Origin: Gammaproteobacteria bacterium
GTDB taxonomy: Bacteria > Pseudomonadota > Gammaproteobacteria > SpSt-1174
Reading direction: 5' to 3'
Assembly (NCBI GenBank): GCA_033839185.1
Contig: JAJLKJ010000078.1
Coordinates: 1 to 45,291 of the forward strand
Length of the DNA: 45,291 bases
The notes beneath the pieces are model-generated. The model did not search any database. It was not told the origin of the DNA and saw nothing but the letters and a program-made list of their open reading frames with translations. Every line of letters begins with the position of its first letter. The stretch's first letter is position 1. Made by a program: the position numbers and the translations under genes. Positions 1,788 to 30,856 of this stretch are shown piece after piece.

Positions 1788-3821
1788 ATGAAACAGTCCA
1801 GCCAGATGGCGTCGCTTTCGATGGCGATTGCCTTCACTCTTTCCGGGATGTCTGCCCAGGCCGCCGAGACCCTCGCCCCGATCGCGGTCGAGGCCGAGGC
1901 CGAGACCGCCGCCGAGCCCATCGTGCAGGGCAGGGAAGCCCTCGCGCCCTCCGCCACGACGGCCGCCGATCTGCTGAAGTCGGTGCCGGGCGCCGATGTG
2001 AACCGCAACGGCAGCCTGTCGGGTATCGCCCAGTACCGCGGCCTGTTCGGTGACCGCATCGATGTCAGTGTGAACGGCCAGCCCTCCGTGTCGGCCTGCA
2101 CCAACGCCATGGACGCGCCGCTGTCCTATGCCCCGGCCCCGTTGTTCGAGCGCCTCACCGTGTATCGCGGCGTGGCCCCGGTGAGCGTGACGCAGGAGGG
2201 CATTGGCGGGGTGATGGTGGCCGAGACCTGGCGGCCCGACTTCGAGCCCGGCACCCAGGGGCGTGTGACGGCGGGGGCGACCAGCGTGAACGAGGGCCAT
2301 GCCCTGGGCGCCAACGTGGCCGTCGGCAGTGACACCCAGCAGCTCTGGGCCGCGGCCAGCCGCGAGCAGGCCAACGACACCGACTATGCAGATGGCACCA
2401 TCGGTGCGACCGAATACGAACGCAACAGCTACGAGCTGGGTTACCAGCTGCGGGCCGGTGGCGGGATCTGGCGTCTCGAATTCGCGCGGGACGACGGCGG
2501 CCCCGCCGGTACACCGGCCCTGGCCATGGACACCTATCGCAACGAGGCCGACCGCTATCAGCTGTCCTACGCCGGTACCCTGGGCACGCATGGTGTGAAC
2601 GTGACGGCCTGGCGCAGCGACGGCGAGCACGACATGGACAACTACCACCTGCGTCCCAGTGCCACCACCCTGCGCCGCTCGCTGACCAGTGCGGACGATC
2701 GCGGGGTGAAGGTCGATGTCAGCCGCGCCGCCGCCGGCGGCCTGCTCACCGTGGGGGCCGAGGCACAGAAGACGGTGCACGAGGGTGACATCTATGACGC
2801 CGCCACCGACACCCTGCTCACCGTGGCCTACAACGACGTCGAGCGTGCCCCGATGGGCGCCTATGTTGAATGGGAGGGCCGGCGCGGGGGCTGGCAGCTG
2901 GTGGCCGGTGCGCGCTATACGCGGGTGGCGATGGACGCAGGCGAGGTGGACTCCAGCATGGCGATGATGAACCCCGCCGTGGCGGCCTATCGCGACGCCT
3001 TCAACGCCGCCGACCGCTCGGTGACCGATCACAACCTCAACTGGGCCCTGAACCTCCGCCGTCCGCTGACGGCCGGCACCGAGCTGGTCGCCGGGCTGTC
3101 GCGCAAGCTGCGCTCGGCCTCGTACCAGGAGCGCTACCTGTGGCTGCCGATGGAGTCCACCGGCGGGCTGGCCGACGGCAATGTCTATGTCGGGGACATC
3201 GGTCTGGATCCCGAGGTGGGGCACGAGATCGATCTGGGCATCGACTGGCAGGCCGGGGCGCATTACTTCACCCCGCGCGTGTTCTATCGCGACGTGAAGG
3301 ACTACATCCAGGGCGTGCCCAATGGGGACACCTTCATGGGCAACCCGGTGTTCCAGTTCACCAACGTCGATGCCGAGCTCTACGGTCTTGACGCCGGTTT
3401 CGGCCTCGGTCTCACACAGGCCCTGCGTGTGGATGGCGCCATGAGCTACACGCGCGGCAAGCGCACCGATGTCGACGACGACCTCTACCGCATCGCGCCC
3501 CCGCACCTCAATGCACAGCTCAGCTATGCCCATGGGCGGTCGGTCTTCGGTGTGGAGGGCGTGTTCTATGCCGAGCAGGACGATGTCTCGGCGACAAATT
3601 TCGAGCAGGCCACCGCGAGCTACGCCGTCTACAACCTGAGCTGGCGCTATGCGGCCACGCGCAACGCCGACCTCACGCTGGGCGTGGACAACGTCTTCGA
3701 CAATGGCTATCAGGATCATCTTGCCGGCTACAACCGTGTAGTCGACAGCGATGTGCCGGTGGGTGAACGCCTGCCGGGTGCCGGCCGCAACTTCCATGCC
3801 GGTCTTGCCGTGAGTTTTTGA
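1788..3821 (+). CDS. TonB-dependent outer-membrane receptor
   Basis: Signal peptide MKQSSQMASLSMAIAFTLSGMSAQA|AE and a TonB-box-like TLAPIAVEAE. Plug motifs (NGSLSGIAQYRGLFGDRIDVSVNG), a long beta-barrel and a C-terminal aromatic residue (..HAGLAVSF). GGGAG at 1778-1782. Substrate not assignable. Confidence 0.9.
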   Translation: MKQSSQMASLSMAIAFTLSGMSAQAAETLAPIAVEAEAETAAEPIVQGREALAPSATTAADLLKSVPGADVNRNGSLSGIAQYRGLFGDRIDVSVNGQPSVSACTNAMDAPLSYAPAPLFERLTVYRGVAPVSVTQEGIGGVMVAETWRPDFEPGTQGRVTAGATSVNEGHALGANVAVGSDTQQLWAAASREQANDTDYADGTIGATEYERNSYELGYQLRAGGGIWRLEFARDDGGPAGTPALAMDTYRNEADRYQLSYAGTLGTHGVNVTAWRSDGEHDMDNYHLRPSATTLRRSLTSADDRGVKVDVSRAAAGGLLTVGAEAQKTVHEGDIYDAATDTLLTVAYNDVERAPMGAYVEWEGRRGGWQLVAGARYTRVAMDAGEVDSSMAMMNPAVAAYRDAFNAADRSVTDHNLNWALNLRRPLTAGTELVAGLSRKLRSASYQERYLWLPMESTGGLADGNVYVGDIGLDPEVGHEIDLGIDWQAGAHYFTPRVFYRDVKDYIQGVPNGDTFMGNPVFQFTNVDAELYGLDAGFGLGLTQALRVDGAMSYTRGKRTDVDDDLYRIAPPHLNAQLSYAHGRSVFGVEGVFYAEQDDVSATNFEQATASYAVYNLSWRYAATRNADLTLGVDNVFDNGYQDHLAGYNRVVDSDVPVGERLPGAGRNFHAGLAVSF

Positions 3822-4817: not shown

Positions 4818-6851
4818 ATGATGAAGCGTTTGATGCCGAACTTGCAGATCCGCCACAAGATCTGGGCCGGATACGGCCTGCTGGTGGCCATCCTGGCCGT
4901 GGTCTCGTTGAGCGCCTGGTTCGGGCTGGGCAGCACGCAGCGGGCGATGGACGAGATCGTCAGCGTGAAGCAGCCCGCCATGATGCAGTCCATGGAGCTT
5001 GCCCGGGACCTGGAGCGGGCGGTGGCGGGTATGGGCTTCTACCTGCTGAGCGGGGAAGAGGACCATCGCGAGAACTTTACATTCGCGCTGACACGCGTGC
5101 AGGAGCTCTCGGCCGAGTTGGCCGCCAACCCGTATGTGGCCGGCCAGGCCGAGCTCTCCGCACAGGTGGCCAACATCGCGGGTAACGTCGAGCGTCTGGG
5201 GGGCTTCAGTGCGGAGATCATCCGCCTGGCCCAGGACCCGGCGGCCAATATGCCGGCCATGCAGTATGCCGGTCAGACGGTCAACCCGCTGAGCCAGCAG
5301 ATGCTGCAGCAGCTCGGGCAGATGCTGCTCACCGAGGCCGAGGAGCCCGCGACCCCCGAGCGCAAGCGCCTGCTCGCCGACATCAACGACCTGCGCTACG
5401 CCTGGGCCAACGTGATGAACGGGGTGCGCGCCTATCTCGCCTTTCGCGGTGAAAGCTCGTTGAATGAAGTGGCGCTCTATCTCGAACAGACCGGTGCAGT
5501 GATCGAACGTCTCCAGGAATCCTCAGCCCTGCTCACCTTCGACCAGGAGGACTCGCTGTCCCAGTTCATCGAGCTGCGCGAGCAGTTCATCGCCAGCTAC
5601 GAGGAGCTGAAGGCCATTCATGGCGGCGAGAAGAGCCGCATGGATGCCTACCTGATCCGCACCGAGATCGGGCCGCTGGTCGCCGAGATCGAGTACGACC
5701 TGGCCATGCTGGGTTCCTCGCTGCAGGAGGAGATCAAGACGGTGACCAGCAGCCTCAACACGCAGCTGGCGGCCACCGAGTCGACGGCGCTGGTGCTGAT
5801 GCTGGTCGGGGTCGGCATCGGCATCCTCGCCGCCTGGGGCATGTCGCGCATGATCGGCGGGCCGCTGCGCCAGCTGTCGGCGGCGATGACGGACATTGCC
5901 GAGGGCGAGGGCGACCTGACCCACCGTCTGCAGGTGACCAGCCGTGACGAGATCGGCCAGCTGGCGCAGGCCTTCAATACCTTCGCCGGCAAGGTGCATG
6001 ACGTCGTGAGCCAGGTGAAGGGCTCCGTGGCCCAGCTGGCGGCAGCGGCCGAGCAGATGTCCGTGATCACCTCGCAGACCAGCGAGGGCGTGGCCCGCCA
6101 GCAGCAGGAGACCGACCAGGTCGCCACGGCCATGCACCAGATGAATGCCACGGCCCAGGAGGTGGCGCGCAACGCGAGCAGCACCGCCAGCGCGACCGAA
6201 GAGGCGGACCGCGAGACCCGCTCCGGTCAGGCGGTGGTGAACCGCACGGTGGAGGCGATGAACGCCCTGGCCGGCGAGGTGGAGCGCGCCGCCGGCGTGA
6301 TCATGAAGGTGGAGAAGGACTCCGAGAGCATCGGCACGGTCATGCAGGTGATCCGCGACATCGCCGAGCAGACCAACCTGCTGGCGCTCAACGCCGCCAT
6401 CGAGGCGGCGCGCGCCGGCGAGCAGGGCCGGGGCTTCGCGGTGGTGGCCGACGAGGTGCGTACCCTGGCCAGCCGCACGCAGGCCTCCACCGAGGAGATC
6501 GATCAGGTGATCAAGACCCTGCAGGGCGCCACGCGCGAGGCCGTGCAGGTGATGGAGGCGAGCCGCGACAAGGCACGCACGGGTGTGGACCAGGCCTCCG
6601 AGGCGGGCAAGTCGCTGACCTCCATCTCGGGCGCGGTGGACAACATCACCGAGATGGGCACCCAGATCGCCAGCGCCGCCGAGGAGCAGAGCGCCGTGGT
6701 CGAGGAGATCAGCCGCAACGTGACGAGCATCAGCGAGGTGGCGAGCCAGACCGCCGAGGGCACGCGTCAGCTGGCGGCGGCGAGCAACGAGCTGGCCAAC
6801 CTGTCGGCCGACCTGCAGGCCCTGGTGGGGCGCTTCAAGGTCGCCGACTGA
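4818..6851 (+). CDS. Methyl-accepting chemotaxis protein (CHASE3-like periplasmic domain, HAMP, MA signalling domain)
   Basis: N-terminal TM, then a CHASE3-like region ([15 protein letters not shown]), a second TM and HAMP ([39 protein letters not shown]). Conserved MCP hairpin [37 protein letters not shown]. Confidence 0.92.
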
Positions 6852-10868: not shown

Positions 10869-11561
10869 CTAGACCTTGATGTAGGTCCAGCCCTCGCGCA
10901 TCCGCTCGATGATGTGTTCCACGGCGGAGGGGGCGGTATGGGTCCTGGGCAGCAGCACCACCTCGACGCCGGCGCGCTCGAGGTGGCGGATGGCGGTGTC
11001 GCAGGCGATGAACTGGAGTTCCTCGTGCTCGGCCATCATGGCCAGCACGCGCTGGCCGTAGGGGGAGCCGCCCGCGCGCAGCATATGCAGTCCCTCGCTG
11101 TTGGCCACGACCTCGATCTGTACGCCCTGTTCGCGGTATTCCTCGAGCAGCGACTCGGCGCGATCGAGCGTGGCCTGCATCTTGGCCGGCTCGGCCGTGG
11201 CGATATGCAGGAGAATGCGCGGCGCCTGTTCTGCCGTCGCCACCTGCTGCAGGGGGCTGGTGCTGTGATGGTTGGCCAGCCAGCCGCCGGAGAAGCCCAG
11301 TGAGATCAGTAGGGCGGCCGCGACGCCGAAGGCCGCCAGACGCTTGCGCGGGTGGTTGCTGTCGACGACCTCGCGGCGTGGTGCCTCCACCCCGTCATAG
11401 GCGTGGCGCACGAGGTCCTTGAGGTTGCGCAGCTCGACGCACTCGGCGCGCAGGGCCGGGTCCTTTTCCATGTCGAGCAGGAAGGCGTCACGCTCCTGGT
11501 GGCTGAGTTCGCCGTCCAGGTAGGCATGGATACGCGCTTCGTCGCGAACGCTCTCGGTCAT
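10869..11561 (-). CDS. Membrane-spanning anti-sigma factor with a C-terminal (predicted periplasmic) DsrE-like / COG1416-type domain
   Basis: N-terminus has the anti-sigma signature IHAYLDGELSHQERDAFLLDMEKDPALRAE, with no HxxxCxxC zinc motif. Single TM at aa 74-95 (LAAFGVAAALLISLGFSGGWLA). Residues 113-230 align with the secreted DsrE-like protein at 12528-12983 (IEVVA..GL..L, F.AC..T, EG.TYIK end). The ATGA overlap with the sigma gene stop indicates translational coupling. Confidence 0.75.
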   Translation of the reverse strand: MTESVRDEARIHAYLDGELSHQERDAFLLDMEKDPALRAECVELRNLKDLVRHAYDGVEAPRREVVDSNHPRKRLAAFGVAAALLISLGFSGGWLANHHSTSPLQQVATAEQAPRILLHIATAEPAKMQATLDRAESLLEEYREQGVQIEVVANSEGLHMLRAGGSPYGQRVLAMMAEHEELQFIACDTAIRHLERAGVEVVLLPRTHTAPSAVEHIIERMREGWTYIKV

Positions 11562-12121
11562 TTAACCCTCCTCAGATGAGGTCTGCCCGCCTCGCTTGCG
11601 GCGGTTGCAGGCATGTGCAGATCGGTGAGAAACCCGGTCAGGGCGCGACGGGCCCGACACAGGCGGCTCATCACCGTGCCAACCGGGATGTCGAGGATCT
11701 CGGCCGTCTCGGCGTAGGCAAAGCCTTCGAGGTCCACCAGTGTGAGCACCTCACGCTGACCGATGGGCAGTTTGCCCACGGCACGGCGCACACGATTGAC
11801 GATCTCCTGGCTGGTCATCTCGACTTCGGGGCAATTCTCGCAGACGAACATCTCGTCGTCGATCTCCACCCCGGGCTTCTGCCGGCGCAGGTGTTCCCGC
11901 CAGGTGTTGCTGAGGATGGCGCTGAGCCAGTGCTCCAGCTTGTTGCCGTCACGCAGCTGGTGGCTCTTCTGCATGGCCTTGATCAGCGTGTCCTGGACCA
12001 GGTCGTCGGCCAGCATGGGGTCTCCACACCAGGCCAGCGCCATGCGGTAGAGCCGCGTTCGGCTGGCCTCCAGCTTCTTCTTGAACGTGCGCGTCGCACA
12101 GATGTGCTCGAGTACTTTCAT
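11558..12121 (-). CDS. ECF (sigma-70 family, group IV) RNA polymerase sigma factor
   Basis: Region 2 (RLYRMALAWCGDPMLADDLVQDTLIKAM) and region 4 HTH (REVLTLVDLEGFAYAETAEILDIPVGTVMSRLCRARRAL). 187 aa. Followed by an overlapping anti-sigma gene. Confidence 0.92.
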   Translation of the reverse strand: MKVLEHICATRTFKKKLEASRTRLYRMALAWCGDPMLADDLVQDTLIKAMQKSHQLRDGNKLEHWLSAILSNTWREHLRRQKPGVEIDDEMFVCENCPEVEMTSQEIVNRVRRAVGKLPIGQREVLTLVDLEGFAYAETAEILDIPVGTVMSRLCRARRALTGFLTDLHMPATAASEAGRPHLRRVK

Positions 12122-12430
12122 CTCTCCACCTACCCTGCATGATGCGTCGCCGGTTTTCTCTATTCCCGCTCTTTTGCGTACGTGCCTTGCGGCGATGGCG
12201 GTTTTGCGACGTGGTTTGTCTGTCGGTGACTTGGTAGCGGCGTGTTCCCCTTTGCCGTGAAGCAGTCTACCGCCACCGGCATCACATCGAAAGAAACAGA
12301 AGTATTTAATGAATTTCTAATCTTCCGGGCATGATGGATGGCGTCAGTTCTTCATGTCCCGCGTCCGTGGTTTTGACGGGATATTGCCTGCCATCATGCT
12401 GCCCGCCAGGGAGGGTGCCGTGCAGTGAAA

Positions 12431-12458
12431 GGAATATTTGTCATCCAGCGCGCGTCAA
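12431..12458 (+). promoter_or_regulatory. Candidate ECF-type promoter GGAAT-N17-CGTCAA upstream of the secreted DsrE-like gene
   Basis: ggaat (12431-12435), a 17-nt spacer, then cgtcaa (12453-12458), about 70 nt upstream of the ATG at 12528. Resembles the generic ECF architecture (GGAAC -35, CGTC/TCnAA -10). Not validated. Confidence 0.35.
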
Positions 12459-12527
12459 TCCGTCGTGAATGCAGAACAGTGCAGTCACGTATGCCAGGGA
12501 ATCATCAACAACAACAGAGGCAGGATA

Positions 12528-12983
12528 ATGAAACGCCACTCCTTTATCGCCGCGTGGTTCGCAGTATTGCTGGTGACTGTCTGCGCCGGGTCAAACGTCG
12601 TCGCGGCAGAGTCATCCTCCAAGCCGTTCGCCGAGAAGCATGTCGTCCTGCAGATATCGGATGAGGATCCGTTCAAGCAGACGCTGGTGCTGAATGTCGC
12701 GAGCAACCTGATCAAGCATTACGGACCTGACAAGGTGGACATCGAAATCGTGGCCTTTGGGCCGGGTCTGAGGCTGCTGTTTGCCGATAACGCGAACAGG
12801 GGGCGTATTGGTGATCTTTCACAGCAGGGCGTGCGGTTCGCGGCCTGCGAAAACACGATTGCCAACATGTCGCGCATCCTCGGCGAGGAGCCGGCCTTGA
12901 ACGACAAGGCCGTGCGGGTTTCTGCCGGCGTGGTGCGGGTCCTGGATCTTGAGGCCGAGGGCTACACGCTGATCCGTCCGTAA
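12528..12983 (+). CDS. Secreted DsrE-like (COG1416-type) protein, paralog of the anti-sigma sensor domain
   Basis: Sec signal MKRHSFIAAWFAVLLVTVCAGSNVVAA|ESS. Mature domain HVVLQISDEDP..., DIEIVAFGPGLRLL, RFAACENT (Cys107, codon 12846-12848), EGYTLIRP terminus. SD agagg/agga upstream. Visibly lower GC3 than neighbouring genes. Confidence 0.75.
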   Translation: MKRHSFIAAWFAVLLVTVCAGSNVVAAESSSKPFAEKHVVLQISDEDPFKQTLVLNVASNLIKHYGPDKVDIEIVAFGPGLRLLFADNANRGRIGDLSQQGVRFAACENTIANMSRILGEEPALNDKAVRVSAGVVRVLDLEAEGYTLIRP

Positions 12984-13052
12984 ACCGGGTAACGATTCCG
13001 CCTGCGTGTGCGGCGAGAAAGAACAAAGAAAAACATTCGGGGGTTTGAATTC

Positions 13053-14426
13053 ATGATGAAAGGGAAGAGACTGGCTGGCGCGGTGGCGCTGGCCCTGGGT
13101 ATGGTCGTGGCCGGTCAGGCGCAGGCCGCCAACTGGGTGATGCTGCAGGGCACGGAGCCGGATGGCATGGCCGAACGGGCCAGGCTTTGGGGGTTCGTGC
13201 AACCAACCTATCGCGCCACTGATGGCACCGAGCTGCCGGCAGGTCCGTGGGAAGGCCAGCCCATGCAGCCCAACATGATCCCCACCGACCTGAGCTCGGA
13301 TTCGCAGTTTCAGCTGCTGCGCGCCCGCATCGGCGTGCGTGGTGTGGCCATGCCGATCGACAGCAAGGTGAATTACTTCCTGCTGGCGGAGTTTGGTGAC
13401 AACGGCATCACCGCCGGCAAGGGCGGGGCGGGCGTCATCTCCGATGCCAGCGTGACACTCAATCACATCCCGGGTGCGCGTGTGCGACTGGGCCTGTTCA
13501 AGACGCCGATGAGCGAGGAGATCTTCCAGGGCGTGGGGACGATGGACTATGTCAACTTCACCGCCTTCACCGATCAGCAGCTCAACGAACGGCACCTGCC
13601 CACGGATGGCCTCGCGCCCTGTGTCTATGGTGCTGGCACCCTCTACAGCCGTTACTGCGAGGAAGGCAACACCTTCAGCGACTTCGGTGCGGCCCGCGAT
13701 ACCGGCGCCATGGTCTTCGATGCCTTCCGCCGAGGCGACTGGGAGCATACCTACGCCGTGATGCTCGGCAACGGCAGTGGCGTGAATGCCGGCAATACCG
13801 ACGACAACCTCGATACCCGCGCCTACTGGTCCTCCGAATGGGTCTTCGGCGGGCAGGGGCCGCGACGCGAGGGCTGGAAGCTCTATGCCTGGATGCATGA
13901 CGGCAAGCGCACCGTGCTCGACAGCGTGCAGCTGGCCGCGGGCAACCGGGTCGAGAACGAATACGACTACGAGCGCTCCGGCCTGGGTACGACCTACCGC
14001 CGCGGAAAGTACCGCTTCTTCGCCGAGTACAACCAGGCCGAGGGCATGATCTTCAACGGCACCGACGGCGGGGCCGTGGCGGGCTCGCTGAACAATGCCG
14101 GTACGATCGTCTCCACCTTCAACCTCCTACCCGAAGACAAGGCGAATGGTTACTACCTCGATTTCGGCTACAGGATCACGCCGAAGATCGAGCTGGATGT
14201 GCGCTATGACGTGCTGAACCGTGGTACGGAGACGGACGTGGAGGAACGCAAGTTCGAGACCGTGACACTGGGCGCGCAGTACTTCTTCAACCGCAAGTCG
14301 CGGCTGATCGTGAACTACGAGATGCGTGACCTGGAGGCACCCAACCTGCCGGCCAATGCCGTGCCGAACCAGATCGGCGAGGCGATCGATGACCGCCTGT
14401 CCGTCCAGGTCTTCATGGTCTTCTAG
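13053..14426 (+). CDS. Outer-membrane porin (possibly OprO/P-like anion porin family)
   Basis: Signal peptide MMKGKRLAGAVALALGMVVAGQAQA|AN. Alternating beta-strand pattern, RARIGVRG motif, terminal ..LSVQVFMVF. Lies 69 bp downstream of the DsrE-like gene and is followed by a strong terminator. Confidence 0.75.
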   Translation: MMKGKRLAGAVALALGMVVAGQAQAANWVMLQGTEPDGMAERARLWGFVQPTYRATDGTELPAGPWEGQPMQPNMIPTDLSSDSQFQLLRARIGVRGVAMPIDSKVNYFLLAEFGDNGITAGKGGAGVISDASVTLNHIPGARVRLGLFKTPMSEEIFQGVGTMDYVNFTAFTDQQLNERHLPTDGLAPCVYGAGTLYSRYCEEGNTFSDFGAARDTGAMVFDAFRRGDWEHTYAVMLGNGSGVNAGNTDDNLDTRAYWSSEWVFGGQGPRREGWKLYAWMHDGKRTVLDSVQLAAGNRVENEYDYERSGLGTTYRRGKYRFFAEYNQAEGMIFNGTDGGAVAGSLNNAGTIVSTFNLLPEDKANGYYLDFGYRITPKIELDVRYDVLNRGTETDVEERKFETVTLGAQYFFNRKSRLIVNYEMRDLEAPNLPANAVPNQIGEAIDDRLSVQVFMVF

Positions 14427-14706: not shown

Positions 14707-17025
14707 TCATGCCGGGAGGTCGGGCGTGTACTCGAAGAGTTGCGATTGCGGCATGGGACGGGCGAACAGGTAGCCCTGGTAGGCATCGCAGCCGGCGGTC
14801 TCGAGAAAGCGTTGCTGCTCCTTCGTCTCCACGCCCTCGGCGATGACCTCGAGATTGAGGGAGTGCCCCATGGCGATGATGGCGTGGATGATGGCGGCAT
14901 CGCTGGGGTTGAGCAGCACGTCGCGGACGAAGGAGGTGTCGATCTTGACCTGGTCCAGCGGCAGGCGCTTGAGGTAGGAGAGCGAGGAGTAGCCGGTGCC
15001 GAAGTCGTCCATGGAGAAGCGCAGCCCCAGTTCGCGCAGCTGGTGGATCTTGCCCGCGATCTCCTTCGGGTCGCCCAGTACGACGGTCTCCGTGAGTTCC
15101 AGCTTGATCAGTCGCGGGTCGACACCGGTTTCTTCCAGGATGTGTGTCACTCGCTGTACGTAATCGTTCTGGTGGAACTGGCGGGCGCTGACATTGACTG
15201 CGATGCAGCGCGGTGACTGCGGTTGACGCCGGTTCCAGTCGATGGTGGTGAGGCAGGCCTGCTTGAGGACCCAGTCTCCAATCGGGACGATGAGTCCGGT
15301 CTCCTCGGCCAGCGGGATGAAGGTGGCGGGCGAGACAGGCGCCTCGTCCGCTGGCAGCCAGCGCAACAGGGCCTCGGCGCCGGTGAGATTTCCGGTGCGG
15401 TCGATCTGTGGCTGGTAGTGCAGTGCCAGCTCATCGTTTTCCAGGGCATTGGCCAGGGTCGCCTCGAGCGAGGCGCGTTGCTCGACCGCGCGCTGCATGC
15501 GCGGGTTGAAGAAGACGGCGGTGTTGCGCCCCGCCGACTTGGCGGCGTAGAGGGCCATGTCGGACTGTTTGAGCAGGTCTTCCAGCGGGGTGCCCTGCCC
15601 CTGGAACAGGGTGATGCCGATACTCGGGGTGATGCGGTAGGCGCGTATCACACCGAGGTCATAGGGCTCGCTCAGGTTGTGGCGGATCTTTTCCGCAATA
15701 TCTTCAGCCTGCCGGGTGGCGGTCGCATCGTTGCTGTCCAGGGCCTCGAGCAGGATGACGAACTCGTCGCCGCCGAGACGGGCGATGGTGTCGACCTCGC
15801 GCACCAGCATGCGCAGGCGCTGCGCGATCTGTACCAGCAGTGTATCGCCGGCATCGTGTCCGCGCGTGTCGTTGAGGGTCTTGAAACGGTCGAGATCGAT
15901 CATCAGCACGGCACCGCGTTCGCCGGACCGGTTGCTGGTGGCCAGGGCATGTGCCAGCCGGTCGTTGAGCAGGCGGCGGTTGGCCAGGTGCGTGAGCGGG
16001 TCGTAGAAGGCCAGCTGGTGGATGCGGCGCTCGGCGTCCTTGCGGTCGGTGATGTCGGAGAAGGCCGCCACATAATGCGTGGTCTCGCCGGCATCGTTGC
16101 AGACCTCGCTGATGGAGAGCCATTCGGGGTAGACGCTGCCGGACTTGCGGCGATTCCAGATCTCGCCTTCCCAGTAGCCGCGTTCGCCGATGGCCTGCCA
16201 CATGTCGGCATAAAAGGCCGGGTCGTGACGCCCCGACTGCAGAATGCGCGGTGTCTGGCCGACAACCTCCTCGGGGGCGTAGCCCGTGATGCGGGTGAAG
16301 GCGCGGTTGACCTGTTCGATGCGGCCGCTGCGATCGGTGATCATGATGCCTTCCTGCGACTCGAAGGCCACGGCGGCAATGCCCAGGCGTTCCTCGCTTT
16401 GCTTGCGCCGGGTGATGTCCGTATGTGTGCCCATCACCCATTCGGGGCGATTGTCGGCGTCACGGGTGATCACCTGGCCGCGATCATGGATCCAGACCCA
16501 GTGCCCCTGCCGGTGGCGCATGCGGAATTCGATGTCGTAATGATCCAGCTCGCCGGAGAAGTGGCGCTGGAGCAGTTGTTCGGCGCGGGAGAGGTCGTCC
16601 GGGTGTGTGAGCCGGCGCCAGGTCTCGATGTCCGTGGGCTCGAGTTCCTCCAGCCTGTAGCCCAGGATGCCGGCCCAGCGCTCGTTGAAGATGGTCTGGC
16701 CGGTGAGGACGTTCCATTCCCAGGTCCCGGCCCGGGTGCCGTCGATGATGGCCGCCAGGCGGCGACGCTCGTCGGCGAGTGCCTGGCGCGCCTCGTCGGT
16801 GTGGCGTGACTCGTGGCGGACCATGAAGTACACGAACAGGATGGAGAGCAGGACGAAGATGAGTCCCTTGGTGCTCTGCACCTGACGCATCTGTTCGATA
16901 CTGAGGGGGGCCAGGCTGACGATCCAGTCCGACAGCAGGATCCAGCCCGTGCCGAAGAGGCCGTAATACAGGGTGCAGCGTCCGGCAATGCCGAGTCGAT
17001 GTAGCAGGGTCGGGCTGGGTTTCAT
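14707..17025 (-). CDS. Membrane-anchored PAS-PAS-GGDEF-EAL c-di-GMP turnover protein
   Basis: Two N-terminal TM helices and two PAS-like segments ([22 protein letters not shown]; [21 protein letters not shown]). Canonical GGDEF with an RxxD I-site ([14 protein letters not shown]). EAL domain ([39 protein letters not shown]). The ATG at 17025 is preferred over 17103. Confidence 0.93.
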
Positions 17026-17189
17026 GCAAGCTTGCCGGTTTGACGGGGCGGGCTGGCAGTGGCCCGGACCCAGGAGTGGGTGTATGGAGGGGAGTATATA
17101 CATATCCTGCCCCGGGTATCAGCGCCGCACGGCTTGAGCCGCCCTGTGGTATCGCGTAGTTTCGGGCTCAGGAGAGACGGCTCGTTGAC

Positions 17190-18245
17190 GTGGTGGATTT
17201 AGACATGACACATGATTGCCAATGCCATTCGGGCAGACGGCGGCTGCGTATCCGCTTTGCGGAGGCGGGGGCGGTCCCCGAGGTGGTGCATACGGCGGCA
17301 GCCAAGCTCGGGTGGGAGTCGGTGGCGGACGGGCGTTCCTTTGACCTGGAGATCGGGGGCGGGGCGCGCTTTTCCAGTCCGGCGGAGCTGGCGGTCTATC
17401 TGCGCGAGATCGCCTCCGAGGCCTTCGACGGGATGGAGGCCCTGTGGCTCGATGGCGAGGGGCAGCCGGCGGAACCCCTGTCGAAGAACCTGGCCGGCTA
17501 CGATGCCAACCCGCTCTATGCCCTGCTGGAGAAGCGGCGGCTGGCCACCTGGTTTCAGCCGGTCTTCGATCGCGACCTCCGGGTATGGGGCTACGAATGC
17601 CTGGTGCGCGCGCACGACGAGGCCGGCGGGCTGATCACGCCGGATCGTCTCATCGGCTGGGCGCGGGACGAGAACCTGCTGTTCTACTTCGATCGGATCT
17701 GCCGCGAGACCCATGTCGCCAATGCGGCGGCCGCCAAGGCGCCGGAGGATGCCCGCTTTCTCATCAACTTCCTGCCGACCACCATTTACGAGCCCACGGT
17801 CTGTCTGCGTACGACACTGAAGGCCGTGGACCGGGCGGGTCTGGCCAAGGAGCGGGTGATCTTCGAGGTGGTGGAGAGCGAGAAGATCGAGGACGCCGCG
17901 CACCTGCGCCGCATCCTCGACCATTATCGCGCAAGCGGATTCGGCGTCGCCCTGGACGACCTGGGAACCGGGCATTCCGGCCTGTTCCTGCTGGCCGAAC
18001 TCGAGCCGGACCTCATCAAGCTCGACCGCGAACTGGTCGCAAGGGTGGCGGACTCGCGCATCCATCGTTCCATCTGCCGCAGCATCATCGACCTCGGCCG
18101 GGAGGAGGGAAAGCTGGTGCTGGCCGAAGGGATCGAGACGGGCGAGCAATACGCGATGCTGCACGAACTGGGGGCCGACCTGTTCCAGGGGTTCTACCTC
18201 GGTCGCCCGGCCGCCAAGCCGGCGCTCTCCGCGTTGATCGACTGA
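17190..18245 (+). CDS. EAL-domain phosphodiesterase with an uncharacterised ~115-aa N-terminal domain
   Basis: EAL domain motifs WFQPVFDRDLRVWGYECLVR, EVVESE, LDDLGTGHSGL, KLDREL, AEGIET, QGFYLGRP. The N-terminal region (contains DCQCH) matches no family I recognise. Start uncertain (GTG 17190 or ATG 17205). Confidence 0.85.
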   Translation: MVDLDMTHDCQCHSGRRRLRIRFAEAGAVPEVVHTAAAKLGWESVADGRSFDLEIGGGARFSSPAELAVYLREIASEAFDGMEALWLDGEGQPAEPLSKNLAGYDANPLYALLEKRRLATWFQPVFDRDLRVWGYECLVRAHDEAGGLITPDRLIGWARDENLLFYFDRICRETHVANAAAAKAPEDARFLINFLPTTIYEPTVCLRTTLKAVDRAGLAKERVIFEVVESEKIEDAAHLRRILDHYRASGFGVALDDLGTGHSGLFLLAELEPDLIKLDRELVARVADSRIHRSICRSIIDLGREEGKLVLAEGIETGEQYAMLHELGADLFQGFYLGRPAAKPALSALID

Positions 18246-18346
18246 CTCCCTCTCCTGTCAGGGCTGTGACACCACCCGGTATTTTCCGGTATGCCGCAGG
18301 CGGTATACTCCCCGCCGTTTCGTCCACCACTGACAAGGAGTTCAAG

Positions 18347-18880
18347 ATGAAAAAGACGTTGATGACACTGGGCATGATGACGGCCCTGGCCGCCGGCGGG
18401 CCCGCGTTGGCCGCCGATGGCACCTACGCATCGGCCAGCCCCTATTTCGGCGCCCAGCTGGGCATTGCCGACGTGGACGGTTTCGACGAGGGTCTGATGG
18501 TCGCAGGCACGCTGGGCCTGCCGGCGGAGCACCTGGTTCCCAATCTGGCCTTCGAGGCCGAACTCGGCATGAGCCTGGTCGATCCGGAGCGCGATGTGCC
18601 GGGCGGCACGGTCGAGATCTCCTACTGGTACCTGGCCGGCTTTGGCGTGTACAACGTGCCGCTCAATGGCGACTTCAAGCTGCGCGGCAAGCTCGGCATG
18701 GGTTACCTGGATGCCGAGGCCGATGGCCCGGGTGGTTCCGCCTCCGACAGCGACCTGGAGCTGATGTACGGCGTCGGCCTCGTCATTCCGTTGCGTGGCG
18801 ATCTGCGGGGCCTGGTCGAATATACCCACGTCGAGTCGGATCTCGGACAGCTCTCGGCCGGGGTACAGTTCAACTTCTGA
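18347..18880 (+). CDS. Small outer-membrane beta-barrel protein (OmpA-like/OMP_b-brl type)
   Basis: AAGGAG SD at 18335-18340. Signal peptide MKKTLMTLGMMTALAAGGPALA|AD, alternating beta-strands, terminal ..SAGVQFNF. The rest of the 478-aa track ORF is an out-of-frame overlap with the EAL gene. Confidence 0.8.
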   Translation: MKKTLMTLGMMTALAAGGPALAADGTYASASPYFGAQLGIADVDGFDEGLMVAGTLGLPAEHLVPNLAFEAELGMSLVDPERDVPGGTVEISYWYLAGFGVYNVPLNGDFKLRGKLGMGYLDAEADGPGGSASDSDLELMYGVGLVIPLRGDLRGLVEYTHVESDLGQLSAGVQFNF

Positions 18881-18903
18881 TCCGGTTCTGACTGGTGCAG
18901 GTG

Positions 18904-18931
18904 AAAAAGCCGGGCTTCTGCCCGGCTTTTT
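18904..18931. terminator. Bidirectional rho-independent terminator between convergent genes
   Basis: aaaaa-gccgggc-ttct-gcccggc-ttttt (18904-18931). Confidence 0.9.
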
Positions 18932-20727
18932 CATGCCTCGCCGACGGCGCGTGCCGTATCGACGGCATCATGCGTCGGGGTAAGGTGCTGCCGCCGGGAG
19001 ACGAACAGCGCATTGCCCTCCATCGTCTTGGCCATGTGCTTGGCATCGGTGGCCAATGTGGCCACCTCGTGATGGGAGGCGCAGCGACGGGCATCCGGAC
19101 TCGCCACCCCCACTGACAGGCTCAACAGTGGAAAGAAGGTAGGCTGACCCTGCCGGTCACTGGCCTCGATGCCGCCGCGGGCGATGTCGGCCGGCTCGTA
19201 GAAATCCATCGTGGCATTGGCAAAGGCTTCCAGGATGTGCTGACAACGGGCCTGCCAGTCGGTGCTGCGCAGAATGGCGACGAAGTCATCGCCGCCGACA
19301 TGGCCAATGAAGTCGTTACGCGGATCGAGCCCGGTTTCCAGTATCTGCGCCAGCCGCTTGATGACCTGGTCGCCCTTGCTGTAGCCGTAGGTGTCGTTAT
19401 AGGGCTTGAAATTGTCGAGATCGAAATAGGCGATGTGGAAGTCGCCGCCTTCCTGCAACAGGCGATCGATGGTCTCGTAGATCGGTACGTTGCCGGGCAG
19501 TTGGGTGAGCGGGTTGGAGTGGCGGGCATTGCGTATCTGCAGGTCGGTGATCTTGCGCAGCAGATCGCGTACATGACCCATGCCGAGGTACTTCCCCTGC
19601 TTGCTGATGATGAAGTCATGGCGCATGTCCAGCTGGGGATTCTCGGTGAGCTTCTGGCTGACGGCCTCCACCGGGGAGTCATGGGCCACGATCATGGGCC
19701 GGGAATCCATGAATTGCTCGATGGGTTTCTTGCCATGCAGTTCGCGGCCATAGCGGCTGGCGAAGAGCTCCAGCATGGTGTCGCGGTGCATGATGCCCAC
19801 CGGGCGTTGCTGGCGCAGCACCGGCAGCGACTGCAGTCCCTGCACCATCTGGAACATCTCCGCCACCTGGTTGACGCGTGTGCCGGCCTCCACCGACGGC
19901 ACGCGCACGGCCAGGCTTTCGATGGTCTCGGACAGCCGGGGCGTACGCTGGTTGCCGCCGCAGTTACGGCAATGCAGCAGCGACTCGTCCAGCTGGTCCG
20001 GCGGCATGGCCTGTGGGCGGCCGAAGTAATAGCCCTGGCCCAGGCGGATACCCATGTTGAATACGGTCTGGTATTCGGCGGCCGTCTCGATGCCCTCGGC
20101 AATCACGCGGCAGCCCAGGCCGGCGGCGATGTCGATGATCGAACGGACGAACTCCTGCTTGACGATGTCTTCATCGATGCCTGCGATGAAGTGCCGGTCG
20201 ATCTTCACGTAGTCCGGGCGCAGCTCCGACCAGCTGCGCAGTCCCGCGTAGCCCGCACCCAGGTCATCGATGGCGATCTCGAATCCCATGGCCCGGTAAT
20301 GGCGCACGGTATCCCGGATCAGATCGTAATCATCCAGCGGGTATTGCTCTGAGATCTCGATGACGACCGAGCGGGGACTGATGCCCGCCTGCTCCAGGAT
20401 CTGCGGCGTCTGGTTCGACGGGTAGTTGCGTTCCAGCAGGCTGGTCGGGCTGACATTGAGAAAGAGCTTGCCGGCGAGGTCCAGATGGGCGAACTGCAGA
20501 GCGGAGATCTCGCGCGCCAGCAGCTCCACATCGGCGAGCCGGTTGTAGCGATTGGCGGCCTCGAACAGGTTGATCGGGGCATGCAGGCTGCTGTCGGACG
20601 GGCCGCGGATCAGGGCCTCATAGCCCAGCATGCAGCGGTCCTGGAAGTCCACGATGGGCTGGAACAGGGCACTGAGCGCCCGGGCATCGAGAATGCGGTT
20701 GAGTTCGGCCTGGGAGGTTGAAGGCAT
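18931..20727 (-). CDS. EAL - CBS pair - GGDEF(degenerate GGDDF) signalling protein
   Basis: N-terminal EAL (LFQPIVDFQDRCMLGYEALIRGP, EISEQ, IDDLGAGYAGL, KIDRHF, AEGIET, GQGYYFGRP). Central CBS-like pair. C-terminal GGDEF fold (FDLDNFKPYNDTYGYSKGD ... HVGGDDFVAIL). Start ATG 20727 or GTG 20757. Confidence 0.9.
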   Translation of the reverse strand: MPSTSQAELNRILDARALSALFQPIVDFQDRCMLGYEALIRGPSDSSLHAPINLFEAANRYNRLADVELLAREISALQFAHLDLAGKLFLNVSPTSLLERNYPSNQTPQILEQAGISPRSVVIEISEQYPLDDYDLIRDTVRHYRAMGFEIAIDDLGAGYAGLRSWSELRPDYVKIDRHFIAGIDEDIVKQEFVRSIIDIAAGLGCRVIAEGIETAAEYQTVFNMGIRLGQGYYFGRPQAMPPDQLDESLLHCRNCGGNQRTPRLSETIESLAVRVPSVEAGTRVNQVAEMFQMVQGLQSLPVLRQQRPVGIMHRDTMLELFASRYGRELHGKKPIEQFMDSRPMIVAHDSPVEAVSQKLTENPQLDMRHDFIISKQGKYLGMGHVRDLLRKITDLQIRNARHSNPLTQLPGNVPIYETIDRLLQEGGDFHIAYFDLDNFKPYNDTYGYSKGDQVIKRLAQILETGLDPRNDFIGHVGGDDFVAILRSTDWQARCQHILEAFANATMDFYEPADIARGGIEASDRQGQPTFFPLLSLSVGVASPDARRCASHHEVATLATDAKHMAKTMEGNALFVSRRQHLTPTHDAVDTARAVGEA

Positions 20728-20844
20728 GCAGTCGGCCCGGCATGAGGATGGATGCACAGGGCGTGAACGATACGAAACCGACGTGACAGCCGGATGACGG
20801 CGGATGGTTCGCGCGAAGAGTGGGGCGTCGGCGCTGGCGGGAGG

Positions 20845-24265: not shown

Positions 24266-25039
24266 CTAATTGCCGATCCAGCGTTGCAGTTCCCCGCGTT
24301 GCACCAGGGTGATGCTGCCATCGGTGGCCGGCCGTCCGGCCAGCCTCAGGGCATTGACCAGTGCCGGGTCGGCATCCGGGTGCGGACGCAGCGTCACGTT
24401 GAGCTGGTAGCGGCTGCCCTGGGTGAGCCGGAACTGGCCGCGTGCACTCAGTGGTTCCTCGCTGCTGGTGATGGTGCCAGTCACGATCTTGCCGGTGGTG
24501 GAGAAGTCGACGGTGAAATCGCCGAGTTCCAGGTCGCCGGGAAAGGTGAGGGCGACCTGCTGCAGCCTGAGCTGCCCCTCGATCAGCGTGATGCCGGTGG
24601 CATCGGCATGCGCATGGTCGATGCGCCCGGTGAGCCGGCCGCGGGTGGGGGCGAGACCGGGGGGGCGCGAGGTGATGGCCAGGACGTCCAGCGAGAGGTC
24701 GAGCTCGCTGATGTCGAGTTCGGACTCGTTCACCCAGACATGTGCACGCGCCTCCCCCAGCGGGCCGTTGAACTGCAGGTCGGCGCCGAGCCGTCCGATG
24801 AGCAGGGGCAGGAGGTCCAGTTGCCAGCTGACATCGCCCAACGGGCCCCGGCGATCAGATACGGCCGCCTGGCCGGACCAGACGCTGCCCTGGGGGTTGG
24901 CGAGTTTCAGTCCCTCGGGCAGCGCGATGCGCTCGAGCGCCAGCTGGGCGGGGAGCCCGGCCAGCAGGAACAGCAGGTAGGCGAGCAGGAACAGGCCGGC
25001 ATAGCCGAACACCGCCTTCGCCGTGACGGGTTTCATCAC
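24266..25039 (-). CDS. gspN: Type II secretion system protein N
   Basis: N-terminal TM (FGYAGLFLLAYLLFLLAGLPA), 257 aa. Position after gspM with an ATGA overlap. Confidence 0.8.
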   Translation of the reverse strand: MMKPVTAKAVFGYAGLFLLAYLLFLLAGLPAQLALERIALPEGLKLANPQGSVWSGQAAVSDRRGPLGDVSWQLDLLPLLIGRLGADLQFNGPLGEARAHVWVNESELDISELDLSLDVLAITSRPPGLAPTRGRLTGRIDHAHADATGITLIEGQLRLQQVALTFPGDLELGDFTVDFSTTGKIVTGTITSSEEPLSARGQFRLTQGSRYQLNVTLRPHPDADPALVNALRLAGRPATDGSITLVQRGELQRWIGN

Positions 25040-25515
25040 CGGCGCTCCAGGGTCAGGCGCACATCGACCCGGCAGGGCAGTTCGGTGCGGGTGAGCGTGA
25101 GGGTGGACACCATGATGGAATGCTCCAGTTCCAGGTCGCCGAGCCAGGTGACGAAGCCATCGAAGTTTACACTGCTGATCAGCAGCTCGATGGCCTGCTC
25201 ACCCTGGGGCGTCATGCGCTGGATCGTTTTGGCCAGTTCATGCCGTTGTGCGCTCTGGTTGACGATGGAGAGCAGCGAACCGCCCGCCTGCGCGAGGTTG
25301 GCATTGCGGGTGCGCAGGCGCGCCACTTCCACGGCGGCGGACTGCATCCAGGAGAAGCTCGCGCGTTGGGCCGCGACGCTGGTCTCCAGCTGCGTGATCT
25401 GGCGCTGTAGCGGTGCCCATGCCAGCACGTAGAAGAGCAGCGGCAGGGCGATGGCGCCCCCCGCGATCAGTATGCGCCGGTCGCGCGGGGTGAGCTGCTC
25501 GAGCCATGTCCTCAT
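25036..25515 (-). CDS. gspM: Type II secretion system protein M
   Basis: MRTWLEQLTPRDRRILIAGGAIALPLLFYVLAWAPL... is a typical GspM N-terminus plus TM. 159 aa. Overlaps the gspL stop. Confidence 0.88.
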   Translation of the reverse strand: MRTWLEQLTPRDRRILIAGGAIALPLLFYVLAWAPLQRQITQLETSVAAQRASFSWMQSAAVEVARLRTRNANLAQAGGSLLSIVNQSAQRHELAKTIQRMTPQGEQAIELLISSVNFDGFVTWLGDLELEHSIMVSTLTLTRTELPCRVDVRLTLERR

Positions 25516-26714
25516 CGTGTCTGCTCCACGTTGAGCCGGCCGATGACGCGGCTGCCCTGGGTGTCCACGGACTGCAGGCTGGCATTCAGGCCATTGGCCT
25601 GAATGGTCTGCTTGATCTGTTCCAGTGTGCCCGCGTCCCCTGTCTCGAGTTCGAGCTCCAGCCGGCCGTTGCGGAAGGTGATCAGGTTGATGCGCACCTG
25701 GTCGAGATCCGTGATCGCCCCTCCGGCGGTATCCAGCATGGTCAGGAAGGACGTGCCGGTGCCTCCCCGACTGCTGGCGCGGAAGGCCTCCAGGCGCTGT
25801 TCCATCAGCAGCCGGGGGTCAGGGACCCGGCTGGCATCCGGGAAGGTGTCGAGGTAGAGCGCGCGCATGGCGTCCTGATACTCCGCCTTCAGGTGGTCGA
25901 GCTCGCTGTAGTGCAGCAGGTCCTGGGCAAAGGTCAGCAACAGCCAGCTGGCCGCCAGTGCGGCCGCGATCCACCAGGGGGCGTGACGGCGTGCCAGGCG
26001 TCTGGAGCGGTAGGCCCCCTGCAGCAGGTTGAGCGGCGGATAACGGCCCCATGCGGGGGGGATCAGCGTGAGCGGGTTCCCGCCGCAGGGCAGCTCTTTT
26101 ACCGGGGTGCCGGAGGGCTGGGGGCTGGGGATGCCGGCCTCGCCGCAGCGCCAGACGTCGAGCCCCGCCGGGGTGTTGCTGGCCGCCTCCAGCGTCGCAG
26201 ACAGCAGGGCCTCGAACGCCCTGTCGTCCGCGGCGAGGCCGCAGGCGGGCCCGGTGCGCAGCAGCCCGCGCCGGCCCTCGAGCAGCAGGCTGACATGCCC
26301 CTCGGTGAACGGCAGTGCCAGGACATCCGGTACCAGTGCATGGGGGTAGAGGCCGTTGCTCTCGAGACCGGTCAGCCATGTCTGCAGGCGTTTCCGGGCA
26401 ACCACGGCAACGGGTACCGGATCGTTGTCTTCGGCCTTGCCGAAGGCGAAGTGCAGGTTCTCGACATCCTCGGCGAGCTCGTCCTCCAGGACGTAGGGTG
26501 TCGCGCGGTTGAGTTCCCGGCGATTGGGGATGGTCACCTCGGTGAGCAGGACGTCCTCGGCCGGAACCAGCCAGAGCAGGCGTGCATCCTCGCAGATACC
26601 TGCCAGCTCGGCGAAACCGCCCTCGCCGAACTGCGGTTCGCCGCTGGACGGATCGACACGCCATTGCAGCAGGTCAGGTGCATGCGGATGCTGACGGGCG
26701 ATCACGGTATCCAT
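25512..26714 (-). CDS. gspL: Type II secretion system protein L
   Basis: GspL motif ATPYVLEDELAEDVENLHFAFG, a central TM (WWIAAALAASWLLLTF) and a periplasmic C-terminal domain. Confidence 0.9.
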   Translation of the reverse strand: MDTVIARQHPHAPDLLQWRVDPSSGEPQFGEGGFAELAGICEDARLLWLVPAEDVLLTEVTIPNRRELNRATPYVLEDELAEDVENLHFAFGKAEDNDPVPVAVVARKRLQTWLTGLESNGLYPHALVPDVLALPFTEGHVSLLLEGRRGLLRTGPACGLAADDRAFEALLSATLEAASNTPAGLDVWRCGEAGIPSPQPSGTPVKELPCGGNPLTLIPPAWGRYPPLNLLQGAYRSRRLARRHAPWWIAAALAASWLLLTFAQDLLHYSELDHLKAEYQDAMRALYLDTFPDASRVPDPRLLMEQRLEAFRASSRGGTGTSFLTMLDTAGGAITDLDQVRINLITFRNGRLELELETGDAGTLEQIKQTIQANGLNASLQSVDTQGSRVIGRLNVEQTR

Positions 26715-26718
26715 GGCG

Positions 26719-28648: not shown

Positions 28649-28652
28649 CGGG

Positions 28653-29141: not shown

Positions 29142-29158
29142 GGCCTGCAGCCGGCTGC

Positions 29159-30846: not shown

Positions 30847-30856
30847 GACCGGTGTC

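Follow-up and report, generated by a model that had tools for sequence, protein, structure and literature searches.

The window analyzed here is a stretch of 45,291 nucleotides from a gammaproteobacterium (GTDB lineage SpSt-1174; GenBank assembly GCA_033839185.1, contig JAJLKJ010000078.1). On its minus strand it contains a gene pair for an extracytoplasmic function (ECF) sigma factor and its anti-sigma factor, and divergent from this pair, across a 406-bp intergenic region, are genes for a secreted DsrE-like protein and an outer-membrane porin on the plus strand (Table 1). The data showed that the C-terminal sensor domain of the anti-sigma factor is homologous to the secreted protein, that the two share one invariant cysteine, and that the ECF sigma factor, the anti-sigma factor, the secreted DsrE-like protein and the porin are a cassette conserved across sulfur-oxidizing Gammaproteobacteria and Betaproteobacteria. 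This is a new form of ECF sigma/anti-sigma signaling, in which the sensor domain is of a new type and the predicted regulon centers on free-standing relatives of that domain. We propose that the cassette is a self-contained four-gene signaling and uptake unit of sulfur-oxidizing Proteobacteria.

Homology and fold of the sensor domain and the secreted protein

An earlier note, made from the letters of the DNA, had described the sensor domain and the secreted protein as paralogs with one conserved cysteine and roughly 30% identity by eye. When residues ~114–230 of the anti-sigma factor were aligned with the secreted protein using the Smith-Waterman algorithm and the BLOSUM62 matrix, the score of 111 (z = 18.7) lay above that of each of 2000 shuffles. 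The comparison of the same two sequences by phmmer gave an E value of 8e-12, and BLASTP seeded sensitively with short words gave 47.4 bits (E 7e-12, 26% identity), while hhalign of the two family alignments gave a probability of 99.3% and an E value of 4.5e-20 over 116 columns, in which the cysteine columns were aligned. Default pairwise BLASTP of the anti-sigma factor against the secreted protein returned noise only. This is a failure of seeding and not an absent signal, and the null result was discarded because Smith-Waterman, phmmer and sensitive BLASTP concur. The homology is therefore borne out by four methods, and all the sequence blocks that had been listed by eye are present in the formal alignment, while the identity is somewhat lower than estimated, at 25–27%.

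The identity of the domains was drawn from searches of PDB sequences and of folds, because the Pfam and NCBIfam matches were below threshold: the secreted protein had no match in these databases, and the sensor domain had sub-threshold matches only. In phmmer searches the archaeal protein MTH1491 (PDB 1L1S) was matched by the secreted protein with an E value of 2.2e-11 and by the sensor domain with 2.3e-07, the family profiles gave 3.5e-13 and 4.4e-20, respectively, and the matches to ST0148 (2PD2) were weaker. The AlphaFold2 models had predicted local distance difference test (pLDDT) values above 90 in the DsrE-like domain of both proteins. Foldseek superposed them on 1L1S with template modeling (TM) scores of 0.92 for the sensor domain (root-mean-square deviation, rmsd, 1.6) and 0.90 for the secreted protein (rmsd 1.6–1.9 over both models), and on 2PD2 with TM scores of 0.88 and 0.89. 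Further matches, at a probability of 1.0, were to 2HY5 (DsrEFH), 1JX7, 3MC3 and 2D1P (TusBCD), and YchN and further DsrE/DsrF-like entries were also found. Hence, the sensor domain and the secreted protein belong with the small DsrE-like proteins of the MTH1491 type, which presumably corresponds to COG1416. The likeness to MTH1491 and ST0148 extends over the fold (TM 0.88–0.92, rmsd 1.6–2.0), significant sequence matches, a cysteine that likewise closes a strand and is followed by a helix, and a C-terminal EGW.YI motif. On the other hand, MTH1491 and ST0148 are cytoplasmic, archaeal and of a function that is not known, while here one domain appears to be exported by the Sec pathway and the other is fused through a predicted transmembrane helix to an anti-sigma factor. 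The secreted protein has a basic start, a hydrophobic helix at residues 4–24 and then the sequence V-V-A|A-E, which, judged by eye and with the AlphaFold2 model, looks like a typical Sec signal peptide.

The anti-sigma factor contains two cysteines, Cys41 and Cys187, as does the secreted protein, Cys19 and Cys107, and each predicted mature periplasmic domain has one. The positions and codons that the earlier note had assigned to Cys187 and Cys107 are exact; both codons are TGC, and the two residues are aligned. In the fusion proteins, by which we mean anti-sigma factors carrying this domain, Cys187 was invariant in an alignment of 30 sequences and then in all 177 of a larger set. The same 177 sequences also agree without exception in Gly157, Trp225, Tyr227 and the N-terminal Asp16, while 168 of them have His119. 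In the secreted protein, Cys107 and the entire A-C-x-N-T motif are invariant in 36 of 36 orthologs (59–88% identity), the alignment of which has a mean column identity of 68% and 43 invariant columns. A non-significant alignment or an unconserved cysteine, on either of which the earlier note would have given up its proposal, was thus not what was found. Among the free paralogs neighboring fusions, 18 of 19 keep the cysteine, and the exception, in the locus designated L021, has serine. This free paralog lies directly after the anti-sigma gene (L021 5949–6416, plus strand) and reads VVSATAL in place of V/ACxNT, which makes it a natural cysteine-less variant.

The asparagine and threonine of the C-x-N-T motif are invariant in the free proteins and relaxed in the sensor clade (N/Q/R/K and A/T, respectively), so that, to judge from the alignments, the sensor clade keeps the thiol and not its exact surroundings. 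In the AlphaFold2 model Cys187 is the last residue of the strand 182–187, ahead of the helix 188–196, and it aligns with the cysteine of MTH1491 (CACSNT) and that of ST0148 (GCENS). These comparisons support the view that the shared cysteine is the one invariant functional residue common to both families. The C-termini of the families also have characteristic forms: the sensor clade ends in a conserved ...E-G-W-T-Y-I-K-V-COOH (window 10872–10895, minus strand), and the free proteins end in ...G-Y-x-(L/I)-(I/V)-(K/R)-P-COOH (window 12960–12980, plus strand). It could be speculated that the free hydrophobic C-terminus of the anti-sigma factor is a tag for a PDZ protease.

The 230-amino-acid protein is read as a single-pass class I anti-sigma factor with a periplasmic sensor domain, a topology predicted from its sequence. 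In the AlphaFold2 model a confidently predicted N-terminal bundle of three helices is followed by a long hydrophobic helix (residues 72–94) and a C-terminal alpha/beta domain, and the N-terminus is placed in the cytoplasm because a basic stretch, RKR, precedes the hydrophobic helix. The profile matches of the N-terminal part were weak, with 20.4 bits for zf-HC2 at a cutoff of 22.2 and E values of 0.19–0.42 for the N-terminal domains of MucA and RseA in PDB, while among 30 family members 11 match zf-HC2 and 5 match RseA_N. The zinc-binding H-x3-C-x2-C motif of zinc-binding anti-sigma (ZAS) factors is absent from this domain, in which Cys41 is the single cysteine. The same column holds V, L, A or I in most of the 177 homologs, and Tyr in the nearest relative, L024 from a metagenome-assembled genome (MAG) of Chromatiales. 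Because Cys41 is not conserved, the protein is not a zinc-binding ZAS factor. The databases name the fusion either 'DsrE family protein' or 'zf-HC2 domain-containing protein'.

Both families are large. A word-indexed search gave 31 fusion proteins, while an exhaustive profile search gave 5837 matches, among them 542 clusters at 50% identity with E<=1e-30, of which the best 150 were all full-length fusions of 221–303 amino acids; the secreted DsrE-like family has more than 3594 members. In a neighbor-joining tree of 21 sensor domains, 19 free proteins, MTH1491 and ST0148, the sensor domains formed one clade with a bootstrap of 100/100, and the free proteins formed at least three subfamilies. 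The description of the two proteins as paralogs therefore stands as far as homology is concerned, but they are not recent paralogs, since the split is deep (25% identity, as compared to 59–88% among the free-protein orthologs) and the sensor clade is separate and monophyletic. Because all sensor domains fall into one clade, the fusion is a single and old event, and the family of the effector that the sensor would control is then the one from which the sensor itself was drawn in the distant past. The fusions were found in Thiomicrospira, Thiohalobacter, Sulfuriferula, Thiobacillaceae, Rhodocyclaceae and Chromatiales, which we take to be sulfur-oxidizing lineages. The hosts include Thiomicrospira sp. 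S5 and WB1, Thiohalobacter thiocyanaticus Hrh1 and Sulfuriferula sp. GW1, as well as MAGs of Thiobacillaceae, Rhodocyclaceae, Thiohalobacterales, Chromatiales and Burkholderiaceae.

Conservation of the cassette and of a candidate promoter motif

The neighborhoods of fusion genes were collected from assemblies, species genomes and metagenomes and annotated with hidden Markov models of the families, which gave 26 informative distinct loci. At least one secreted DsrE-like gene adjoins the sigma/anti-sigma pair in 19 of them, and it is usually divergent from the sigma gene. In at least 15 distinct loci a free dsrE-like gene is followed directly by a porin gene, either adjoining the pair or a few kb off in the same locus. 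The locus L024 has the full arrangement of the window together with the same flanking genes. When loci were sampled from the side of the free protein (60–88% identity to the window protein), three of three held the sigma/anti-sigma pair. In a Rhodocyclaceae MAG (L002; GCA_026415155.1, 5405–11044) the pair is inserted among sox genes, in the order soxY-soxZ-sigma-antisigma-soxA-soxX-soxB. The cassette of L025 has a Redoxin gene inside it.

There are also six lineages in which the fusion, with an intact cysteine, has no free paralog nearby, that is, within 1.3 to ~7 kb on each side of the pair, depending on the contig (L002, L012, L015, L016, L020, L022). Three of these lone fusions are divergent from a gene for a secreted protein of 538–592 amino acids (L015 1026–2642, L016 405–2039 and L020 4524–6302, all on the minus strand), which has an acidic insert rich in D, E and K; the sigma/anti-sigma pair beside it is a second such pair in MAGs of Thiohalobacter and Thiohalobacterales. 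The identification of this protein as thiocyanate dehydrogenase was rejected, as it had no sequence match in PDB or Pfam. The DsrE/F-like genes and porin of a Thioalkalivibrio arsenite transcriptome were likewise rejected as an instance of the cassette, as the porin there adjoins a TonB receptor and not a dsrE-like gene.

The intergenic regions between sigma and dsrE-like genes contain a conserved bipartite motif, GGAATA(A)-N15–17-C(G/A)TC(T)(T/A), which has the form of an ECF promoter. The pattern GGAATA-N15–17-C[GA]TC occurs exactly twice in the window, as compared to 0.12 occurrences expected from shuffles, and both copies are within the intergenic region of the cassette and face outward. 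The minus-strand copy is ~20 bp ahead of the sigma start codon, while the plus-strand copy is ~70 bp ahead of the ATG at 12528. On the sigma side the motif was found at the same position in L024, L009/L027, L028, L010, L011 and L026, and it precedes free dsrE-like genes in L001, L003–L006, L008–L011, L024–L028 and L037; both sites are kept in the nearest relatives L024, L009/L027 and L028. Across the loci the motif is located upstream of sigma genes and of divergent free dsrE-like genes of all three subfamilies, and it is also found upstream of the separate dsrE-like/porin operons of L003, L006 and L025. In L002 it precedes both soxY (5405–5433) and the sigma gene (6403–6431). In L003 a copy at 2525–2553 (minus strand) precedes the genes at 87–2374, which are an open reading frame of 141 codons followed by a cytochrome b561 (Ni_hydr_CYTB) and Oxidored_molyb genes, and the same is observed in L006; this YedYZ/MsrPQ-like operon may be an additional member of the regulon in Thiobacillaceae.

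Because the free paralog and the porin share the promoter motif of the sigma gene, the sigma factor appears to have these two as its own regulon, and the arrangement of the motif strongly suggests one sigma factor that would be autoregulated and would also drive these two genes. It could be argued that the fold is simply abundant and that the adjacency of sensor and free protein is accidental, as the free family is far larger than the fusion family. We find this hardly credible, because it is contradicted by the adjacency in both Gammaproteobacteria and Betaproteobacteria, by the common promoter motif, and by the presence of the pair in every locus reached from the free-protein side.

The sigma factor has regions 2 and 4 without region 3 (Pfam), which, together with its size, assigns it to the ECF group, and NCBIfam TIGR02937 (sigma70-ECF superfamily) matched it with 72.5 bits at a cutoff of 42.9. 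The porin gene is co-oriented with the dsrE-like gene and 70 bp downstream of it. Its open reading frame opens at GTG 13008, while the probable start is the ATG at 13053 (MMKGKRLAG..., signal peptide), which was chosen because the gene is called from there in L024, a locus of 88% identity. The G+C content across the dsrE-like/porin operon (window 12001–14000) is 0.61, as compared to 0.65–0.68 in the flanks, and the dsrE-like gene has a G+C content of 0.60 and a G+C content at third codon positions (GC3) of 0.77, as compared to GC3 values of 0.82–0.89 in its neighbors.

Table 1. Features of the cassette and adjoining genes, with positions in the window
Feature	Position	Strand	Basis or remark
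ECF (group IV) sigma factor, 187 amino acids	11558–12121	−	Pfam Sigma70_r2 3e-13, Sigma70_r4_2 1e-17
Single-pass anti-sigma factor (predicted), 230 amino acids	10869–11561	−	ATGA overlap with the sigma stop codon, translational coupling
Predicted cytoplasmic anti-sigma domain, residues 1–55	11397–11561	−	helices 8–15, 21–33, 35–55; pLDDT 84–91
Predicted transmembrane helix, residues 72–94	11280–11348	−	hydrophobic helix in the AlphaFold2 model
Predicted periplasmic DsrE-like sensor domain, residues 114–230	10872–11222	−	1L1S match, Foldseek, pLDDT >90
Cys187 codon TGC, the only cysteine of the sensor domain	11001–11003	−	read from the sequence
Candidate ECF promoter of the sigma/anti-sigma operon, GGAATAG-N14-GCATCATG	12138–12166	−	motif match
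Candidate ECF promoter of the dsrE-like/porin operon, GGAATAT-N15-CGTCAAT	12431–12459	+	motif match
Secreted free-standing DsrE-like protein, 151 amino acids, signal peptide of ~26 residues	12528–12983	+	ATG after a GAGG ribosome-binding site
Cys107 codon TGC, within the A-C-x-N-T motif	12846–12848	+	read from the sequence
Outer-membrane porin, OprO/OprP (anion-selective) family	13053–14426	+	Pfam Porin_O_P 2.3e-07
PAS-GGDEF-EAL protein	14707–17103	−	cyclic di-GMP turnover; also a neighbor in L024
EAL protein	17190–18245	+	cyclic di-GMP turnover; also a neighbor in L024
EAL-CBS-GGDEF protein	18931–20757	−	cyclic di-GMP turnover

The remainder of the window is an ordinary gammaproteobacterial chromosome. 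Three genes of cyclic di-GMP turnover lie directly beside the cassette (14707–20757), and a complete type II secretion (gsp) cluster, with C, D, E, F, H, K, L, M and N recognized by Pfam, is located at 24266–35258 on the minus strand. Elsewhere the window contains the 3′ end of groEL and genes for a cytochrome b561, a TonB receptor, TonB, a chemoreceptor and an Fe3+-type ABC importer, as well as queC, terB and a DsbD_2 protein.

A proposed sulfur-sensing mechanism and its alternatives

A sulfur-related role of the cassette is proposed because of the DsrE-like fold, the distribution among sulfur oxidizers, and the one locus that is wired into sox. The proposal that Cys187 senses reactive periplasmic sulfur species, and that the response of the sigma factor is to switch on the genes of the free carrier and the porin, is in our estimate evenly balanced between being right and being wrong. 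According to this proposal, the single-pass anti-sigma factor would hold the ECF sigma factor at the inner membrane until a reactive periplasmic sulfur species, which could be sulfane sulfur/polysulfide or a donor of thiosulfonate (for example, thiosulfate or tetrathionate), modifies Cys187 covalently. The modified sensor domain would fold or oligomerize differently, and the anti-sigma factor would be inactivated, most likely by regulated proteolysis in analogy to RseA and MucA. The released sigma factor would transcribe its own operon and the divergent dsrE-like/porin operon, and the induced DsrE-like protein, with its Cys107, and the anion-type porin would let the cell take in and carry more of the same sulfur species. 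In some lineages the sigma factor would also drive further free DsrE-like paralogs or sox genes. The sensor and the secreted protein need not touch in this mechanism. The lone periplasmic cysteine may stay reactive because it has no partner for an intramolecular disulfide, like the carrier cysteine of SoxY (PMC2864759). Among relatives, a cysteine persulfide has been described on DsrE and a cysteine thiosulfonate on DsrE3A and TusA, which are passed to partner proteins (PMC4175335, PMC11094781).

Alternatively, the free protein could be the primary acceptor of sulfane sulfur or thiosulfonate, and the transfer from Cys107 to Cys187 could be the signal. The two proteins are both predicted to be periplasmic, have a single cysteine each and the same fold, and are encoded side by side in most loci, and the presence of the free protein in the regulon would give positive feedback. 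Transfer from cysteine to cysteine is documented for DsrE3A to TusA (PMC4175335) and, in a paper that cites Stockdreher 2012 for it, for DsrEFH to DsrC (PMC6620896). What is difficult to reconcile with such a relay are the intact-cysteine fusions that have no free paralog nearby and the adjacent free paralog of L021, which has serine for the cysteine. Direct sensing is favored over an obligate relay because of the six lineages with lone fusions, and we regard the relay as unlikely, even if worth keeping in mind. A particular form of it, in which the sensor and its secreted twin form a mixed periplasmic oligomer similar to DsrEFH, and a persulfide or thiosulfonate is handed from the free cysteine to that of the anti-sigma factor, appears to us similarly improbable. 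If it were true, an ECF sigma factor would be gated by a protein-to-protein transfer of sulfur that ends in transcription, and this would be the long-sought inducer pathway of sox and related genes in some lineages of Betaproteobacteria and Gammaproteobacteria.

A mixed oligomer could also have the opposite effect, if the free protein co-assembled with the sensor as a decoy and shielded the anti-sigma factor from the site-1 protease. In this case the sensor would be released once the free protein took up sulfur or was drawn elsewhere, and the output would report the amount of unoccupied carrier. Shielding of this kind has precedents in RseB for RseA and CpxP for CpxA. DsrE-fold proteins are obligate trimers or hexamers, which often mix paralogs, as in DsrEFH and TusBCD, and we take MTH1491 (1L1S) to be trimeric in the crystal. 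Foldseek groups both models with these hetero-oligomers of paralogous subunits (2HY5, 2D1P), the free protein is predicted to be under the same sigma factor, and its extreme conservation, described above, would be expected if it has protein partners. However, sensor and free domains share only ~25% identity and have long been in separate clades, some loci have a sensor without a free protein, and the absolute invariance of the sensor cysteine would be left unexplained, which makes titration by the free protein quite doubtful, and somewhat more so than the relay.

In another explanation, Cys187 would be a sensor of thiol oxidation, which HOCl, H2O2 or chloramines convert to sulfenic acid or a mixed disulfide. 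The regulon would then serve periplasmic repair and defense, and the free DsrE-like proteins would be thiol reductants and not sulfur carriers. This could explain the motif before the operon of cytochrome b561 and molybdopterin oxidoreductase in L003 and L006, as well as the Redoxin gene of L025, and DsrE-like selenoproteins with a redox motif exist (PMC1088965). On the other hand, the distribution is confined to sulfur oxidizers and one locus is wired into sox, an anion porin would be odd in a regulon of oxidant defense, and the cassette contains no conserved partner cysteine or reductase. Oxidant sensing is therefore improbable in our judgment, and we return to the proposal that Cys187 senses sulfur species directly.

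Several observations weigh against this proposal. The ligand is deduced from the fold and the genomic context, and no sox or dsr genes were found in the annotation of the proteins of the 45-kb window. The Pfam DsrE model, which matched 16 of 30 fusion homologs at E<0.01, gave 15.8 bits (gathering threshold 22.7) and no match, respectively, for the two proteins of the window. The shared cysteine is likely equivalent to the catalytic Cys78 of DsrE, as the structural models suggest, while the residue was aligned to MTH1491 and ST0148 only, and no sequence alignment to the DsrE or TusD structures was obtainable because the similarity is too low. The relaxed C-x-N-T surroundings in the sensor clade mean that the chemistry of the sensor may differ, and the motif before the YedYZ/MsrPQ-like operon of L003 and L006 might indicate a response to oxidative stress instead. 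The motif was defined on the very loci described here, and only position and conservation assign it to the sigma factor. Finally, a search of public sequencing runs returned none at useful identity (<=20% of sampled words, with one doubtful RNA run).

Relation to known systems and significance

The anti-sigma factor resembles class I anti-sigma factors of the RseA/MucA type in its predicted architecture of an N-terminal helical domain, one transmembrane helix and a periplasmic C-terminal domain, in the translational coupling to an ECF sigma factor that would be autoregulated, and in the weak RseA_N, MucA and zf-HC2 matches. It differs from RseA in that the periplasmic domain is unrelated and that the trigger would probably be a covalent modification of cysteine and not unfolded outer-membrane proteins. 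The earlier note knew of no relay or decoy of this kind in ECF systems, and none was found in the literature, while ECF control of sulfur oxidation as such is known (PMC3511301, PMC3445524). The ECF26 factors RpoE1 and RpoE4 respond to sulfite and control sulfur oxidation (PMC3511301), and sigma-2 and sigma-7 of A. butzleri act on sox (PMC3445524). These systems have in common with the cassette the autoregulated ECF control of genes of periplasmic sulfur oxidation (PMC3511301, PMC3445524), but the ECF26 anti-sigma factors have a COG5662 domain and not a DsrE-like one (PMC3511301), and their regulon includes no paralog of the sensor; the anti-sigma factors of the A. butzleri system are likewise unrelated to the one in the window. 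No sorT or sorAB was found beside the sigma/anti-sigma pair in the window, which also separates it from the ECF26 type. The cassette also departs from the FecI/FecR/FecA type, as Pfam detected no FecR domain and the outer-membrane partner is a Porin_O_P protein and not a TonB-dependent receptor. A DsrE-type anti-sigma factor or this cassette was not found described in the literature, although a bare listing in the group tables of the ECF Hub may exist.

On the side of the sulfur carriers, DsrEFH, TusBCD, DsrE3A and TusA share with the two proteins the superfamily fold (Foldseek probability 1.0, TM 0.6), the cooperation of paralogous subunits, and one essential cysteine that carries a persulfide or thiosulfonate (PMC4175335, PMC11094781), but they are cytoplasmic and have no regulatory output. 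The published DsrE groups, from DsrE to DsrE5, are likewise cytoplasmic only and include no periplasmic or sensor branch (PMC4175335, PMC11094781). SoxYZ is periplasmic and has one conserved cysteine that bears covalent sulfur adducts, while its fold is unrelated and the cysteine is on a C-terminal swinging arm (PMC2864759); the L002 copy has the motif of the sigma gene ahead of soxY and is predicted to be controlled through it.

The periplasmic sensing of reduced sulfur by chemolithotrophic sulfur oxidizers is, to our knowledge, largely not known. Regulators of sox are known from a few Alphaproteobacteria and Betaproteobacteria, where they are cytoplasmic repressors of the ArsR type, and all the characterized DsrE relatives that we are aware of are cytoplasmic. 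The cassette is a concrete candidate for such a sensor, as its predicted regulon is tiny, its promoter motif is defined and one residue alone would be reactive, and it is found in the four cultured strains listed above among the hosts (S5, WB1, GW1 and Hrh1). Through it the ECF repertoire gains a new extracytoplasmic sensor domain, and the exported DsrE-like proteins, a family of thousands, obtain their first functional handle. If the sensor and the effector exchange sulfur, this would be a new principle of signaling, and if they do not, the cassette would be a clean case of a sensor recruited from the family that it regulates.

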